Origin: a virus
Lineage: Duplodnaviria > Heunggongvirae > Uroviricota > Caudoviricetes
Virus record (IMG/VR): IMGVR_UViG_2695420487_000009
Strand: one strand, 5' to 3'
DNA length: 7,739 nt
Shown: positions 1-5,206 of the stretch, in pieces
Layout of the letters: each line of letters starts with the position of its first letter
How positions within the stretch are numbered: the stretch's first letter is position 1
Notes under the pieces: model-generated
Databases searched by the model: none
Told to the model about the DNA's origin: nothing
What the model saw: only the letters and a program-made list of their open reading frames with translations
Position numbers and translations under genes: made by a program

Positions 1-573
1 CGCGTCCGCACTGAATGTCCCCTCCGCGCCCTGGGTGAATGCCGAACCACCACGACAGCATGGTACCAGCAGGATCCCCGCGTTATTCGGGATATACGGG
101 AGCAGTTTTTTGGCAATATGTAAACCCTGGCCGACACAGCCGTACTGCCCTTTGCTCAGGTCAGCCCTCGGATGATTCAGCGTACTCATATCCTGCACAT
201 CATGCAGACAGTGGTCAGCCGGAATAATATCGTTATATCTGCAGGCAGCCCCGCCCGGCGTCACTGTACTGCGGCGCGCCAGCTGTTTAATGCGCGGATC
301 CGGAGCATCGTATGAATCCGGCAGCGGAAGCCCTTCACCGTAAGCCATGGCATTGGACTGCCCGGCCAGTACGATGACGTAGTACCAATCCGGCTCAGAT
401 GAAGGGCCGACCTGTGGCTCTCCTTCAATAGCCACCGCCTGCATCAGTGTGTACGGCGTAATGGCAACCGGTCCGCCGTATGGCTGCCAGCCCTCTTTCA
501 GTTTGTGTGTCAGCTTTTCCGCAAGATCTGACGGCGACGCCGCCCTGACAACATCATAATGTTTAATCGACAT
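1..573 (-). CDS. Prophage sialate O-acetylesterase-like protein (nanS-p-like; DUF1737 N-terminal domain followed by SGNH/SASA esterase domain); only the first ~191 codons are in the window, gene continues past position 1
   Basis: Reverse-complement translation from the ATG at 573 gives MSIKHYDVVRAASPSDLAEKLTHKLKEGWQPYGGPVAITPYTLMQAVAIEGEPQVGPSSEPDWYYVIVLAGQSNAMAYGEGLPLPDSYDAPDPRIKQLARR... with no stop before the window edge. The N-terminus looks like the DUF1737 fold found at the start of prophage esterases, and GQSNAMAYG is the catalytic-serine block of SASA/SGNH sialate O-acetylesterases. An SD-like GGGAG lies 7 nt upstream of the ATG. Position (downstream of Q and a moron) matches the stx-nanS-p arrangement of Stx phages. 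Confidence 0.7.
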   Translation of the reverse strand, partial: MSIKHYDVVRAASPSDLAEKLTHKLKEGWQPYGGPVAITPYTLMQAVAIEGEPQVGPSSEPDWYYVIVLAGQSNAMAYGEGLPLPDSYDAPDPRIKQLARRSTVTPGGAACRYNDIIPADHCLHDVQDMSTLNHPRADLSKGQYGCVGQGLHIAKKLLPYIPNNAGILLVPCCRGGSAFTQGAEGTFSADA

Positions 574-659
574 CGAATTTCTCCCGTGTACAGGAACAGA
601 GTTAAAAAGCCGGAACCGGAATCAAATCACAGGATGACCATCTGCCAGTGGCAGGTCAT

Positions 660-685
660 AAAAAAAAGCTGCGCAATGCGCAGCC
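660..685 (-). terminator. Rho-independent terminator read on the minus strand (7-bp GC-rich stem, 3-nt loop, followed by a U9 tract)
   Basis: Plus strand 660-668 is A9 and 669-685 is GCTGCGC-AAT-GCGCAGC (perfect inverted repeat). On the minus strand this is a hairpin followed by nine U. It lies between the membrane-protein moron and the esterase gene. Confidence 0.55.
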
Positions 686-1114
686 AGAACTCACAAGGAA
701 AATGATAAAAGGAATAACACTAGTGATGTACGCATGGCGCCTCCCGCTAAGTTCTGCAATGATCAAACAGAACTCGCTACGTGCCCTTAAAACTCGATCA
801 TTTAGCCCCTCCAAGGAGGATTCACCATGCGGTTGGTTTTTTAATAAACAGTAAACAAAAAAGTCAAGAATTATTCATTCTGTTCTTTCATCATCGGCCA
901 CAGCAATACCACAATGCCGCAGACCAGAGCGCCATCAGTCAGTACCAACATTATCCTGCTGGTGAAATCCATCATCACCATCACTAAAAGCAGGATCACA
1001 ACAGCAAGCAGACACAGTTTATAAAACAATGTTCAGAAAACGCATTCAGCATGCCTGAGGTTCTATTCCTACGAATAGCCAACTTGCAACTTAAAATATT
1101 ATTTATGCAGCCAA

Positions 1115-1831
1115 TTAAATTCTGGTCCTTACAATATCAACCTGAAGATTCTTATCTTGTGCTGATTGATAAATGACAAACCTTTTACTACCTGCATTGA
1201 AAGAAGTAGACAAAACCAGACAATTATCATAACGAGCAAGAACATAATACCAACCATCATTATAATTAATCATTTCATATTCTTTCTTAAACTGTGGTTT
1301 GTAATATCCTGTCAGAAATGAAAAAAGCCAGAAATATGCCACAAAAGCAATCATCACAATCTCAAAAAAATGTTTTTTTATAAATGGCTTATCATAGAAG
1401 CATGATACCGATAAAAATCGCCCATAAGATCTTATCGAAATTGTAACCGCCAGCGCAATCGCTGCTGACAGTAGCAAAAGAGGTACCTGAATCTTCTGTC
1501 TCAATATAGAAAACTCAATAATTGCCGGCACAAACAATAATTCCACAGCAAAATAAAGGCGAAATACATTTAGCTCTTGCATAGAATGTTTTCTTTTCAC
1601 TGCGAAAAAGAATACAACACCAATACCCCAACCGATAAGAAATATAGCAATGACGATAACTGCAAAAAATAAACTTCTGGCAACATCATCAACACCTGCA
1701 CCTACAATCCACCATGGGAAGCCGTAGTAAAAAGAAGTACCCCATCCATAGAAATAAGCACTCCCCCATCCAAGGCATCCCATGTAGGCAATAAAAAGTG
1801 AAGAACTCCTGAGCAGCGCACCATCCTTCAT
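1115..1831 (-). CDS. Polytopic inner-membrane protein of unknown function (about 5 predicted TM helices plus a ~50-aa C-terminal soluble tail); AT-rich moron downstream of Q
   Basis: Open frame 1115..1873 on the minus strand (252 codons). Hydrophobic runs include SLFIAYMGCLGWGSAYFYGWGTSFYYGFPWWIVGAG, SLFFAVIVIAIFLIGWGIGVVFFFAV, LYFAVELLFVPAIIEFSIL, VPLLLLSAAIALAVTISI and FFEIVMIAFVAYFWLFSFLTGYY. I favour the third in-frame ATG (1831, MKDGALLRSSS...) because it is preceded by a G-rich SD-like GGGGTGG, and the first ATG (1873) sits inside a candidate -10 element; 1873 and 1858 remain possible starts. Composition is clearly more AT-rich than the flanking Q and esterase genes. Confidence 0.6.
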   Translation of the reverse strand: MKDGALLRSSSLFIAYMGCLGWGSAYFYGWGTSFYYGFPWWIVGAGVDDVARSLFFAVIVIAIFLIGWGIGVVFFFAVKRKHSMQELNVFRLYFAVELLFVPAIIEFSILRQKIQVPLLLLSAAIALAVTISIRSYGRFLSVSCFYDKPFIKKHFFEIVMIAFVAYFWLFSFLTGYYKPQFKKEYEMINYNDGWYYVLARYDNCLVLSTSFNAGSKRFVIYQSAQDKNLQVDIVRTRI

Positions 1832-2010
1832 AACCACCCCAATACAAGATGGTAACATTGGCTTACAACTCATAACAAAAGCAATTCAATGCCGTCAAGA
1901 GGTTACAGGCTAAAAAAACTCTATTACATTGCAGTCAGCATGTTTACTACACAAATACAATTCAGAGCATAAAAACTACTCGGCGGCAGGTTATTGAGCT
2001 CATCAATGAC

Positions 2011-2067
2011 ATGTAAAAAATGCCCATTATTGGTGTCAAGTTTCCCCAAAGTTATTCAAAAAGTCAA
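2011..2067 (-). promoter_or_regulatory. PR'-like Q-dependent late promoter with qut-type architecture
   Basis: On the minus strand just after the Q stop: TTGACT (2067..2062), a 17-nt spacer TTTTGAATAACTTTGGG, GAAACT (2044..2039), then TGACACCAATAATGGG. This parallels my recollection of lambda PR' (TTGACT-TATTGAATAAAATTGGG-TAAATT-TGACTCAACGATGGG), including the Q-binding spacer and a start-proximal -10-like pause element. The -10 hexamer here is weaker, and an overlapping TTGACA-17-TTACAT alternative exists. Confidence 0.5.
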
Positions 2068-2109: not shown

Positions 2110-2733
2110 CTAACGTGTGATCGCATTCAAAATGTTGTCTGCGATTGACTCTTCCTTGTGGCATTGCACAACCAGAGCGTCATACAGCGGCTTAACAGTG
2201 CGTGACCAGGTGGGTTGAGTAAGGTTTGGGATTAGCATCGTTACAGCGCGATATGCGGCGCTTGCTGGCATTCTTGAATAGCCGACACCTTTGCATCTTC
2301 CGCATTCTTTCTCAACAACTCTCCCCCACAGCTCTGTTTTGGCTATATCAACTGCCCGACCTGTACCGTGGCAATCTCTGCATCTTGCGCCCGGCGTCGC
2401 GGCACTACGGCAATAATCCGCATAAGCAAATATTGCGAGCACTTGCAGTACCTTTGCCTTAGTATTTCCTTCGAGCTTTGCCACACCACGGTATTTCCCC
2501 GATACCTTGTGTGCAAATTGCATCAGATAGTTGATAGCCTTTTGTTTGTCGTTCTGGCTGAGTTCGTGCTTACCACAGAATGCAGCCATTCCGAATCCGG
2601 CTTGTGATTGCGCCATTCCCATAGCAGCCATCACATCAGTACCGGAAAGAGAGTCAGAAGCCGTAGCCCGTGGTGAGTCGCTCATCATCGGGCTTTTTGG
2701 CGAATGAAATTTAGCTACGCTTTCGAGTCTCAT
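2110..2733 (-). CDS. Q: Late-gene antiterminator Q (lambda type)
   Basis: 207-aa product [207 protein letters not shown] matches lambda Q as I recall it over essentially its full length, including the CxxC...CxxC zinc-binding region. Its ATG overlaps the stop of the upstream phosphatase gene (ATGA), and it is followed by a PR'-like promoter. Confidence 0.95.
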
Positions 2734-3395
2734 GCGCCTTCTCCCTGTACCTGAATCAATGTGAGGTTTCCGCAGAACACTGCGCCGGTATCGATATACA
2801 TCTGGTTGGCAAACTTGAGTGGTTTCACTGCTGGCGTATGACCAAAGATGAACGTGTCCGCGCCTTTGATTTCTTTCACGATCCCGTCTTGTGAGTTGCT
2901 GATTCGTTCGCGGTTCCAGATTACCTGCTGATGATCAACTGGCTTTCCAAACTCGTATTCGTCACAAGGATAATCGGCGTGGCAGATGACATATTTTTTA
3001 TCTTTGCTCACCAGTTCGATGATTAACGGAAGTTCTTCTGCTTTATGGGCAAGAGCTTTAGCCAGAATTTCTTTGTCGTAATCGAGATTAAAGAACCAGC
3101 CACCGCCATTAAGCAGCCAGTGATTGACGTTTCCACGCTCTGATAAGCCATCAATCATCATGTGCTCATGGTTTCCACGTACAGCTCTGAACCAGGGGAA
3201 TGTGATTAATTCCAGGCATTCAACGTTCTCTGCACCACGATCAACCAAATCGCCAACCGAGATAAGCAGGTCTTTTTTGGTGTCGAATCCTATCGTCTCC
3301 AGTTTTTTCATCAGGTTCGTGTAGCATCCGTGCAGATCGCCAACTACCCAAATATTTCGGTATTTGCTGCCATCAATTTTTTCGTAATAGCGCAT
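2730..3395 (-). CDS. ninI: Serine/threonine protein phosphatase, lambda ORF221 type (calcineurin-like metallophosphoesterase)
   Basis: From the ATG at 3395 the product is 221 aa, [25 protein letters not shown]...GDLVDRG...GNHE..., carrying the GDxHG, GDxxDRG and GNHE phosphoesterase signature blocks and matching lambda phosphatase as I recall it. The longer frame from 3470 (246 aa) adds an N-terminal extension that overlaps ninH and is not expected. Confidence 0.9.
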
Positions 3396-3579
3396 CTCTT
3401 TCACTCCATCCGCGATGAACCATGAGAACGTCGTTGACGATGGCGTGCATTTTCCCGTCTTTATCATCAACGTATTTTCTGACCGTACCGCGACTACATT
3501 TCAGTCTGCGTGCTACTTCTGTCTGGTTTCCGTATGCTTCAACGAGCATGTCTGGAATGGTTTTTACTGAGAACGTCAT
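3373..3579 (-). CDS. ninH: NinH (68-aa lambda nin-region protein, small DNA-binding-like)
   Basis: 68-aa product [68 protein letters not shown] corresponds to lambda NinH in length and sequence as I recall it. Its start overlaps the ninG stop and its end overlaps the ninI start, the typical nin-operon coupling. Confidence 0.85.
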
Positions 3580-4178
3580 GCGGCCTCACTTCTGCTATTT
3601 CGCAGGTCTTTGAGTTTCTGCTGATACTCCGCCTTAATGGCCCTGCACTCTTCGACAGTCCAGCGATGGCGGTTATGGTTTGATTCGATTTCGTCTACTG
3701 CTTCCTGCCCGATGCGGTTAATCAGTTCGACGCGATACGGAACGAGATTTCCGCTTTTATGTTGGTTGCACACCACGCATTGCTTGTGAATATTGCGTTC
3801 ATCAAATCGGAGTTGAGGCGCCGCAGCAGTTGTCCGGTAATGCCCGGCATCCCACTGAGCAGACGTGAGCGTTCCGCACGAGATACATGGTAAGTCGCGA
3901 TCTCTTTCTCTGATGAAGGCGTTTACGGCTTGTTGGGCTTGTTTAATCCAGTAACTGCGGGGCTTTAAGGCGAGTTTTCGAATCTTCAGTTTATCTTTCT
4001 GTTTCTGCTCCTCTCGTCGTCGTTTCTTCTCTGCTGCTTTTTCCGCTTTTTCGCGTTCTTTGCTTCGTCGTTCGAGTGCTATCTTGGTTCCACAAATCTC
4101 ATTACACCAATATTGATTTTGATATTTTGGTATAAACCATTCATTGCAACATTTACATTTCCTTCGATAGATTCGCAT
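3576..4178 (-). CDS. ninG: NinG/Rap-family recombination-promoting protein with a divergent N-terminal ~30 residues
   Basis: From the ATG at 4178 (strong SD AAGGAG 5 nt upstream) the 200-aa product is [104 protein letters not shown]...[70 protein letters not shown]. From GTKIALE onward it matches lambda NinG as I recall it; the first ~30 residues are divergent and encoded by AT-rich codons. The ORF-track start at 4238 lies inside the upstream endonuclease gene and is rejected. Confidence 0.85.
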
Positions 4179-4719
4179 AAGTGCTCCTTTCGTTGCCGGA
4201 AAAATCACCGTAATACTTATCTCGGGCTTCTTCAGCAACTAGTACCGCTAACTCCAGATCATCAAAGCATCCGAAGTGTTTACTCTTGCCATGGAATCCT
4301 AGCCTAACATTCCATTTTTTCTGTCGTTTGTGCCAAGTAACCCCTCTGCAACCTGATTTGCTATTCTTTCGGATCCTTATATTTCTTGAATTTTCTATTG
4401 GCAGGCATTCTCTTAAATTTTCTGGCCTATTGTCGGTCCTAATTCCATTAACGTGGTCAATTTGACCAGCAGGCCAACGATTATGAGTTATGTAAAAAAC
4501 TAAGACGTGAGTTTTATATCTACGCCCATCTATCATGATCATTGAATAACCGTTGGAATCAAAAGTTCCAGCAACACTATTTAATGCTATCCTTCCCTGA
4601 GTGGGAACTTTCCATCTAAATACCCCGGTAGATTTATCGAAACTTAGTAACTCAAATATCCTTTTAACAGTTAAATCTTCTCTTTTACGGTTACATCGTC
4701 TTCGCGCTGGTTTAGCCAT
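4153..4719 (-). CDS. HNH homing endonuclease with C-terminal AP2-type DNA-binding domain, translated from the original ninG start codon (first 9 residues MAKPARRRC are ninG-derived)
   Basis: Product [188 protein letters not shown]. The block [27 protein letters not shown] is an HNH_3-type catalytic motif, and [49 protein letters not shown] is an AP2-like domain; this pairing is typical of free-standing phage homing endonucleases. The region is visibly AT-rich relative to the flanking nin genes. The upstream GTG at 4800 is an alternative but less likely start. Confidence 0.8.
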
Positions 4720-4828
4720 CGCCTTCTTCCTCCGTAATGGTTTTCTGAATTTGGCCACCTGAACAGAGCTCACCAAAGCTATGGATGTCGGTATTTCCAC
4801 AATACCAAGATGGCGAAAATAACTGCAT
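4712..4828 (-). CDS. ninF: NinF-like small cysteine-containing protein (38 aa)
   Basis: Minus-strand frame from ATG 4828: [38 protein letters not shown], ending in a TAA that overlaps the ninG-derived ATG. Termini resemble lambda NinF (M.SPS... and ...EEEDDG) as I recall it, and the position immediately 5' of ninG fits. It falls below the ORF-track length cut-off; short length makes this moderate confidence. Confidence 0.5.
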   Translation of the reverse strand: MQLFSPSWYCGNTDIHSFGELCSGGQIQKTITEEEGDG

Positions 4829-4918
4829 GATAAGCCTCAGGGAAAAGGGAAGACACTACCCCCGATAATTCAGAAACAAATCGAAATACATGAACTAAAG
4901 AAAAAACCACAACAAACA

Positions 4919-4972
4919 GAAATAGAAATAGAAATAGAAATAGAAATAGAAATAGAAATAGAAATAGAAATA
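4919..4972. repeat. Perfect tandem hexanucleotide repeat (GAAATA)x9
   Basis: Direct reading: nine uninterrupted GAAATA units, 54 bp, in the intergenic region between the minus-strand nin genes and the divergent plus-strand 617-codon gene. Confidence 0.95.
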
Positions 4973-5158
4973 TTAAAACAGACCACCACATTCCTGATGT
5001 CATACTCACTAAACAATTTTTCGACAACATGGTAGCTCATAGAACGTTATCGTGTAGACACCCTCTGCTACGTATTCGGTGTTCAGTGCAATATCTACAA
5101 ATACTGGAAAAATCTAAAATCGAGGCAAGTTTTTGGTGATAACTATAGTTAGACTATA

Positions 5159-5187
5159 TTGACGACCTGATGTGCTGTATGTAATAA
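5159..5187 (+). promoter_or_regulatory. Candidate sigma70 promoter for the 617-codon gene (TTGACG, 17-nt spacer, TAATAA)
   Basis: TTGACG at 5159-5164, a 17-nt spacer, then TAATAA at 5182-5187 with a TG dinucleotide immediately upstream, about 20-75 nt before the candidate start codons. Sequence-only prediction in AT-rich DNA, where such matches are common. Confidence 0.3.
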
Positions 5188-5206
5188 CTAACAAAAAATA
5201 TTTTCC

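Follow-up and report, generated by a model that had tools for sequence, protein, structure and literature searches.

A TfpB-family inner-membrane protein gene in the stx-equivalent slot of a lambdoid phage

The subject of this analysis is a gene on the minus strand of a 7,739-nt stretch of tailed-phage DNA (Caudoviricetes; IMG/VR record IMGVR_UViG_2695420487_000009), referred to below as the window, where it lies at 1115–1873 between the late antiterminator gene Q and a nanS-p-like esterase gene. It is a real and intact gene under purifying selection, and homology searches place its product in the Pfam family PF27470 (TfpB). The gene itself is already catalogued (in phage 434, in the O157:H7 prophage Sp3, and through the Pfam family). 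The protein is considered, with somewhat better than even confidence, to be a non-enzymatic, envelope-acting factor of lysogenic conversion or host adaptation, which would be expressed both from its own promoter and by Q-dependent read-through and would serve as an adaptor at the periplasmic face; its mechanism is one that we infer. The family deserves attention as one that is catalogued yet uncharacterised, whose members are found by heat-labile toxin genes, on the Shigella virulence plasmid, and by sseJ, cdt, and LpxR/PmrD genes, and whose compared copies are all under strong selection.

Counted from its first ATG, the open reading frame (ORF) runs without interruption from 1873 to 1115 and comprises 252 amino acids (aa). 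An earlier note, made from the letters alone, had proposed a gene here, and the frame proves to be genuine: it is conserved, intact, and selected, with dN/dS values of 0.055–0.18 in all six pairs compared among phage, plasmid, and chromosomal lineages. The cargo gene was also said to be AT-rich, as is indeed the case, the GC content being 0.32–0.35 over positions 1051–1650 against 0.49–0.52 in the adjoining Q gene. An AT-rich frame that is annotated as “hypothetical” and carries no functional annotation might be taken for a non-functional remnant or a mis-called ORF; the probability of this is next to nil, given the dN/dS range, the intactness of the frame in about 680 genomes, the confident fold prediction, and a family whose conservation reaches from Enterobacterales as far as Moraxella. 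The decaying remnant that the earlier note had itself raised is thus refuted by the selection analysis.

The start codon requires a correction. Family members are 237–238 aa long, and in alleles of 57–94% identity a GAGG, AAGG, or GGGG core, followed 5–6 nt later by the start codon, aligns with M15 of the 252-aa ORF; the upstream ATGs at 1873 and 1858 show no conservation among the alleles. Because the family length and the alignment of the Shine-Dalgarno element and start codon in diverged alleles agree on this point, the true start is most likely ATG 1831, which yields a product of 238 aa and makes the 252-aa version over-extended. The frame of the earlier note therefore stands, and its start at 1873 does not. 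The two features are as follows.

1115–1831, minus strand: probable TfpB-family (PF27470) inner-membrane protein gene, 238 aa (PHROGs, PF27470 homologues, alignment, and AlphaFold2; 100% identical to the phage 434 and O157 Sp3 copies)
1837–1840, minus strand: putative Shine-Dalgarno element GGGG, 5 nt before ATG 1831 (the GAGG/AAGG/GGGG core precedes the aligned start by 5–6 nt in all close alleles)

The family assignment is founded on several searches. The Pfam-A, NCBIfam, and PADLOC libraries gave nothing significant for the window protein, the Pfam copy used being one without the PF27470 model. In PHROGs, the protein matches phrog_1521 (PHROG 1521, annotated as of unknown function) with E=2e-154, and in a collection of 5.8 billion proteins, PF27470 had been precomputed for 103 of 103 homologues; a representative bearing this domain is 100% identical to the window protein across all 238 aa. 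A profile search reached the Moraxella “protein tfpB” at E=7e-62, and tblastn against the Moraxella TfpB gave 28.6% identity over 220 residues (residues 9–216; E=5e-20), while the legacy name “protein tfpB” is also carried by one E. coli fragment in addition to the Moraxella cluster. In Moraxella bovis and M. lacunata, tfpB is an ORF of unknown function that lies within the inversion region of the type IV pilin genes. The Moraxella and window proteins are homologous, fall into the same length class (~235–260 aa), and have in common the blocks GW(S/G)xAYxYGW, YG(Y/F)PW, ARSL, GYxRP, and YY(I/V)L, but the Moraxella gene belongs to a pilin inversion locus, whereas the window gene sits in a lambdoid late-operon slot together with a DUF3927 gene.

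Much closer copies are known from E. coli and its phages. The window protein is 100% identical to the “putative membrane protein” CPT_434_68 of phage 434, located in the “434B nonhomology” region, 97.9% identical to gp58 of phage 2B8, and 100% identical to the copy in prophage Sp3 of the O157:H7 strain PV15-279; the Sakai gene at the corresponding Sp3 position, matched by position and not by sequence, is ECs_0816, annotated as “membrane protein”. The copies in 434, 2B8, and Sp3 thus encode a near-identical protein with the same DUF3927 neighbour, although their annotated lengths differ (247, 238, and 247 aa, respectively), and 434 and Sp3 have a Q82-type antiterminator and LpxR upstream, in contrast to the lambda-type Q of the window. 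Identity is also 100% with WP_001302581.1 of E. coli O157:H7 and O145:H28. The allele is present in 692 of 5426 complete E. coli genomes (~13%), at least 99% identical in 679 of the 692, with a median of two copies per genome; among 50,697 phage records, 434 and 2B8 are the only carriers of any family member.

An exhaustive HMMER search of 1.84 billion cluster representatives returned only 55 proteins at E<=0.001; Neisseria, Moraxella, and Mannheimia supply the full-length distant matches (20–32% identity). Further members turned up when species-representative genomes were scanned: in Salmonella enterica subspecies arizonae and diarizonae, Glaesserella, Actinobacillus, Aggregatibacter (with two copies), Rodentibacter, Pasteurella canis, Spirabiliibacterium, Mesocricetibacter, and Conchiformibius, all of them animal-associated bacteria. 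The 100%-identical E. coli allele also appears on a 3-kb contig under the label “MAG: Veillonella sp.”, which is almost certainly mis-binned.

In the family alignment, the only invariant columns are A25, Y26, W30, W40, A51, G175, Y195, and F218, with W22, Y28, G29, R52, S53, L54, R91, and P102 near-invariant. Conservation peaks in helix 1 (0.72) and in the first periplasmic loop (0.65), and the invariant residues are aromatic, glycine, or small, being placed on helix 1 (GWGSAYFYGWG), in that loop (YGFPWW...ARSL), and in the beta domain's hydrophobic core. The alignment contains no conserved set of His, Asp, Glu, or Cys residues. Since the invariant positions are of this kind and such a set is lacking, a binding or adaptor role is the most likely one.

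The Kyte-Doolittle profile of the protein shows four strong transmembrane (TM) segments, an N-terminal segment rich in aromatic residues and glycine, and a hydrophilic C-terminus of ~60 residues. AlphaFold2 (AF2), rerun on a 26-sequence alignment that includes distant members, gave a model with a pLDDT of 81.8 and a pTM of 0.74, with helices at 3–36, 47–79, 84–111, 116–136, and 155–181 and five beta strands at 187–232. The earlier note's picture of about five TM helices and a short soluble C-terminal tail agrees well with this prediction of five helices followed by a beta domain. Averaged over the family, the net charge is positive at the N-terminus (+0.5) and in loops 2-3 (+2.0), 3-4 (+0.3), and 4-5 (+2.35), and negative in loop 1-2 (−1.6). 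Under the positive-inside rule, these charges point to an N-in, five-TM, C-out topology, with the ~55-residue beta domain predicted to be periplasmic.

The lead followed by the earlier note was a partial resemblance to CPBP/Abi-type intramembrane metalloproteases (PF02517), which are likewise polytopic membrane proteins and often reside on mobile elements. The strings VELLF and FIKKH are indeed present in the window protein, and nothing more speaks for such an enzyme. PF02517 has no match to the window protein at E<=1 and matches none of 26 family members at E<=10. Close homologues have I, V, L, T, or F in place of the Glu of VELLF, which has no adjacent Glu or Arg, so that EExxxR is not formed; the His of FIKKH gives way to Y, N, or V elsewhere, and both strings sit where the family is least conserved. 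The third His motif (HxxxN/D), whose absence had been admitted from the beginning, is found in no member, and the fold has no Rce1/CPBP-like match. With the HMM, motif, and fold evidence all negative, an intramembrane protease is rejected and can hardly be credited any longer.

Other family members occupy varied genomic surroundings. Many alleles are situated away from late or lysis sites, after tail-fibre genes, on the Salmonella and Citrobacter rodentium chromosomes, on plasmids, or as lone genes, and their neighbours are often envelope or host-interaction genes such as LpxR, PmrD, Bor, and Lom/Ail. One diverged allele lies between Q/methylase and esterase genes, together with LpxR and PmrD; in Citrobacter freundii, the gene is found 3′ of tail-fibre genes, near Lom/Ail and DinI. 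The C. rodentium copy occupies a chromosomal locus with frmA and a methyl-accepting chemotaxis protein (MCP) gene, and it is syntenic with the Salmonella copy through a common flank of frmA-like alcohol dehydrogenase, MCP, and LysR genes; the other Salmonella flank carries an SseJ-like gene with Sif and GDSL lipase domains. Plasmids of enterotoxigenic E. coli (ETEC) bear a TfpB subfamily of 59% identity, which in each of the places read is oriented divergently from eltA at a distance of ~870 bp (TfpB gene at 5001–5714 and eltA at 3358–4134 in the retrieved loci), and the ETEC-type protein is indexed in 1285 blocks of the searched collection. The spacer between eltA and the TfpB gene was considered as a relic of a phage Q/PR′ region, a suggestion that found no support, as only a fragment of the IS110 family is present there.

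Further copies are located on Shigella virulence plasmids (pINV), beside iroB/iroC-like genes with a Bor remnant nearby, and in Yersinia directly after a PF06530-type Q. In Neisseriaceae and Pasteurellaceae, the gene stands alone between differing housekeeping genes. The Glaesserella parasuis copy adjoins cytolethal distending toxin genes, whose CdtA/C domains were confirmed (4955–7017 in the retrieved locus), and the Mesocricetibacter copy adjoins an HlyB/HlyD-type exporter pair with a C39-like domain (4888–8454 in the retrieved locus).

The gene for the lipid A deacylase LpxR deserves a separate mention, as it is met by TfpB genes in three arrangements: divergent with Q between them (434 and O157 Sp3), convergent and accompanied by pmrD, and divergent at a distance of 178 bp (C. 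rodentium). This proximity may mean either functional coupling or a common hot spot for morons.

Because the family does not depend on the late operon or on lysis genes, has long been retained at one locus in Salmonella, seems confined to animal-associated bacteria, and has LpxR, PmrD, Bor, Lom, and toxin genes as neighbours, envelope conversion or host adaptation is favoured over defence or lysis. A lysis-timing component, such as a holin, an antiholin, or a spanin-like protein, had been among the earlier note's suggestions and might seem natural for a membrane protein co-transcribed with the late operon 5′ of the holin. It is nevertheless very improbable: the related carrier phages already have a full holin/endolysin/spanin set; homologues lie far from lysis genes (on plasmids, after tail genes, or alone on chromosomes) with no consistent endolysin or spanin linkage; and a 238-aa protein with five TM helices and a beta domain is unlike holins.

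Within the window, the order of genes on the minus strand is NinG (PF05766), a 68-aa ORF in the NinH position, a Ser/Thr phosphatase, Q, the TfpB ORF, DUF3927, and an esterase with DUF1737 and SASA domains. The genes that surround the TfpB gene are the following.

2110–2733, minus strand: late antiterminator Q of lambda type, 207 aa (Pfam PF03589, E=4.3e-57; 97.6% identical to the antitermination protein of phage 2B8)
871–1029, minus strand: DUF3927/P1 TciB-like membrane protein of 52 aa, second gene of the cassette (PF13064, E=3.4e-14; phrog_1470)
656–814, minus strand: 52-aa ORF, “putative membrane protein” in 434, a doubtful gene enclosing a terminator (ORF list and 434 annotation)
1–570, minus strand: N-terminal part of a DUF1737 + SASA (nanS-p-like) esterase, cut by the window end (DUF1737, E=4.8e-16; SASA, E=0.0022)

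In phage VT2-Sakai, the order is NinG, NinH, Q, tRNAs, stx2A, stx2B, SASA esterase, and holin, and the N-terminus of the window esterase is 72–92% identical to the esterase 3′ of stx in several hundred Stx phages. Since VT2-Sakai has stx2AB between Q with its tRNAs and the SASA esterase with its holin, the TfpB gene occupies the slot that stx2AB holds there, between Q/PR′ and the nanS-p-like esterase. The succession of Q, PR′, moron, terminator, and DUF1737 esterase that the earlier note had likened to Stx phages is borne out by this synteny; of its interpretation as a whole, the slot and the proposed promoter of the gene stand, and the protease lead falls. Q-dependent read-through of post-Q cargo is established lambda and Stx-phage biology, and because the slot is the same as that of stx, the logic of read-through applies to the TfpB cassette as well. 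The differences from stxAB are that the TfpB cargo is a membrane protein and not a secreted toxin, that it apparently has a conserved promoter of its own, and that its other alleles are found at non-late sites. An Rfam scan of the window gave no RNA family.

The control elements around the gene, some of them tentative, are listed below.

2039–2067, minus strand: late promoter PR′ with qut/Q-binding site, TTGACT-17 nt-GAAACT (HK542 annotation “promoter, similar to lambda PR' / Qut”)
1971–1990, minus strand: degenerate tR′-like terminator (CCUGCCGCCGAGUAG-U5) with a weak stem, aligning with the clean 434 terminator
1912–1961, minus strand: AT-rich irregular hairpin with a U7 run, a possible weak terminator (local fold of −7.5 kcal/mol before T7 at 1918–1912; conserved in 434)
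1869–1898, minus strand: promoter-like element of the cassette, with TTGACG at 1898–1893, an 18-nt spacer containing TG at 1877–1876, and the hexamer TATGAG at 1874–1869 (geometry common to four alleles)
667–685, minus strand: intrinsic terminator-like hairpin (GGCUGCGCAUUGCGCAGC + U8) at the end of the cassette, downstream of the DUF3927 gene and upstream of the esterase (called by the scanner; the 434 equivalent is annotated as “terminator”)

A stretch of 77–84 nt just 3′ of Q is 90–92% identical to HK97-group phages, and the PR′ coordinates were carried across from HK542, the consensus scanner having given no call at PR′. The phage 434 counterpart of the degenerate element is the clean terminator CCCGCUGCCGAGUGGG-U8, annotated as “terminator” and located at the upstream edge of the shared module (5937–5960 in the retrieved 434 locus). 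Little of that stem remains in the window copy, so that less antitermination may be required for read-through from PR′. The hairpin at 1912–1961 is absent from the scanner calls and rests on weak evidence, the site at 685–667 being the only terminator-like one called in 560–2200. The leader from PR′ to the gene, taken as a whole, folds no better than shuffled sequence (z = −0.55).

The candidate extended −10 element TGTTATGAG, already pointed out in the earlier note, spans 1877–1869 and lies 38 nt upstream of ATG 1831; the element itself holds, but it was placed directly upstream of a gene whose assumed start codon (1873) it in fact overlaps. Four alleles have the same layout: that of the window and 434, a 68% identical one in a stx slot, the 59% identical one of the ETEC plasmid, and a 57% identical iro-adjacent one. 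It consists of TTGAC(G/T), an 18-nt spacer ending in TGn (TG at −15/−14), and a hexamer starting with TA or AA, and it precedes the start codon by 66–70 nt in all four alleles, in surrounding DNA that has diverged; two of the four, the ETEC-plasmid and iro-adjacent alleles, have no Q gene nearby. Because an identical −35/TG/−10 geometry precedes four diverged alleles, the proposal of a promoter acting beside Q read-through gains in strength, and there is good comparative support for the gene probably having a promoter of its own.

The TfpB gene and its DUF3927 neighbour appear to travel together. Among 80 viral contigs with the identical allele, the upstream Q is of lambda type in 47 and of the unrelated Q82 type in 32, and DUF3927 follows the gene in all 79 contigs that have sequence there; next in order is either the esterase or some other ORF on the reverse strand, with a class II holin beyond it. 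As the same pair sits behind two unrelated Q types, the cassette recombines as a unit. DUF3927 as an obligate partner is ruled out, since no detectable DUF3927 neighbour exists at any diverged allele.

A moron in the sense of Hendrix and Juhala has its own promoter and terminator, a deviating composition, and a patchy presence among relatives. The window has the promoter-like block at 1898–1869, the terminator at 685–667, and a GC content of 0.32–0.35 against ~0.50, and the TfpB gene is absent from the HK97-group phages that share PR′; the unit of promoter, TfpB gene, DUF3927, and terminator thus appears to have the classic moron layout, as read from the sequence. Bor, Lom, and Sie proteins are well-known examples of single envelope-protein genes in prophages with their own promoter and terminator. 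TfpB resembles them in this organization, and some TfpB alleles have Bor and Lom/Ail homologues in their vicinity, but there is no relationship in sequence or structure, and the bor, lom, and sie products are smaller and have known phenotypes.

The favoured course of events can be outlined as follows. In a lysogen, the extended −10 promoter of the cassette itself would drive transcription; once the phage is induced, RNA polymerase modified by Q and starting from PR′ would pass the weak terminators, and expression would rise. The protein would insert N-in with five TM helices and expose its ~55-residue beta domain to the periplasm, where it may bind partners or act as an adaptor at the inner-membrane face rather than as an enzyme. 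An envelope process altered in this way would benefit the carrier cell through lysogenic conversion or host adaptation; on this reading, the protein is neither a protease nor a trigger of abortive infection nor a part of the lysis machinery. Should TfpB alter the envelope or a machine for secretion or pilus formation, many mucosal pathogens would have in common an overlooked factor of lysogenic conversion; if it is a simple exclusion protein, it is an ordinary moron.

Several points weigh against this reading. A literature search for TfpB, its neighbour, ECs0816, and phage 434 gave either nothing or papers in which “TFPB” stands for something unrelated (in chemistry, anaesthesia, and type IVb pili), and no experimental result was found in it for any TfpB-family member, including ECs0816 and Moraxella tfpB. 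Support for the promoter is only comparative: the consensus scanner called none at 1869–1898, because the hexamer TATGAG lacks the final T of the consensus. The predicted topology is derived from the positive-inside rule together with a single AF2 model, the other AF2 run, on a shallow enterobacterial alignment, having given a pLDDT of 57, too poor for use. DUF3927 is confined to the neighbourhood of the near-identical allele. Envelope and virulence genes in the neighbourhood may just mark insertion hot spots for acquired DNA, and a channel or transporter-like role would also be compatible with the lack of conserved catalytic residues.

Superinfection exclusion or phage defence is a reasonable rival. 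By this account, TfpB would be an inner-membrane protein that blocks the entry of incoming phage DNA in the manner of P22 SieA, T4 Imm, and HK97 gp15. In its favour, the gene is a prophage moron that seems to have its own promoter; the conserved surface is predicted to face the periplasm, where DNA is injected; two classic moron sites, post-Q and post-tail-fibre, are occupied by the family; and in Moraxella the gene lies in the pilin locus, where other species put phage-evasion genes. On the other hand, PADLOC-DB v2 has no matching family at E<=1, and a single chromosomal locus has been kept across three Salmonella enterica subspecies (enterica, arizonae, and diarizonae) with a dN/dS of 0.07. 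Together with the lone copies amid housekeeping genes, this is a pattern of retention unlike that of fast-turnover defence genes, and the neighbours are host-interaction genes and not defence islands. Exclusion is therefore possible and on balance unlikely.

Another account starts from proteins of the TfpY/FimB class. These are of ~240 aa and N-in, and their three TM helices are joined to a beta-rich domain with mixed and antiparallel sheets in the periplasm; pilins and minor pilins are their binding partners, and they further the assembly of pili without conferring phage defence (PMC11841053). The overall plan predicted for TfpB is similar to that of TfpY, TfpX, TfpZ, and FimB, with ~240 aa, several TM helices behind a short N-terminus in the cytoplasm, a beta-rich C-terminal domain in the periplasm, and no catalytic motif (PMC11841053). 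They are pilin-adjacent in some species, a position whose equivalent TfpB holds in Moraxella. In its general plan, TfpY/FimB is the closest functional analogue of TfpB, by analogy and not identity. The AF2 model suggests a difference as well, since TfpY/FimB has three TM helices and a larger two-sheet domain against the five helices and one small five-stranded domain predicted for TfpB.

It might accordingly be supposed that TfpB is an accessory of pilins or pseudopilins that binds type IV pilin-like proteins and modulates the assembly of type IV pili (T4P) or of the type II secretion system (T2SS). The name-giving member does lie between Moraxella pilin genes, and the plan of the protein (~235–245 aa, N-in, multi-TM, periplasmic beta-rich C-terminus, non-enzymatic) is TfpY-like (PMC11841053). 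The ETEC allele is fixed ~870 bp from eltAB, and the heat-labile toxin encoded there is a substrate of type II secretion. However, adjacency to pilin genes is seen in Moraxella only, with no pilin gene near any of 20 other loci checked and none in the window, so that pilin linkage is rejected as a family-wide trait. TfpB has five TM helices against three in TfpY and a much smaller beta domain. M. lacunata tfpB is frameshifted in a strain that is nonetheless piliated, which speaks against an accessory role; truncated tfpB matches in the species-representative scan are consistent with that frameshift. Moreover, nothing seen in the searches linked TfpB to TfpY by sequence, and neither TfpB nor Moraxella is listed in the paper on TfpY (PMC11841053).

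A pilin-accessory function is for these reasons decidedly unlikely. The bolder proposal that TfpB represents a second, so far unnoticed class of inner-membrane adaptor for type IV pilin-like proteins, linked to pilins in Moraxella and captured in enteric pathogens by phages and virulence plasmids to tune T2SS or T4P assembly, is a long shot; if the adaptor reading were true, the eltAB-adjacent and stx-slot copies would be tied to toxin export or to the blocking of pilus-dependent superinfection. A role in lysogenic conversion at the envelope remains the favoured one.

Some other features of the window lie outside the late region. An HNH endonuclease gene with an AP2-like DNA-binding domain is inserted beside NinG (4153–4800, minus strand) and looks like a homing-endonuclease-type insertion in the nin region. 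On the opposite strand within the nin region, a 617-aa ORF (5207–7060, plus strand; ~33% GC) belongs to phrog_9230 of unknown function and has no Pfam, NCBIfam, or PADLOC match; it is a second AT-rich moron and is split into two “hypothetical” genes (296 and 275 aa) in O145:H28 RM13516. About 235 nt upstream of this ORF, at 4914–4972, there is a hexanucleotide tandem repeat, (AAATAG) x 9.8 with a 98% match, which yields LFLFLF and ISISIS pseudo-ORFs and could be a length-variable regulatory tract.

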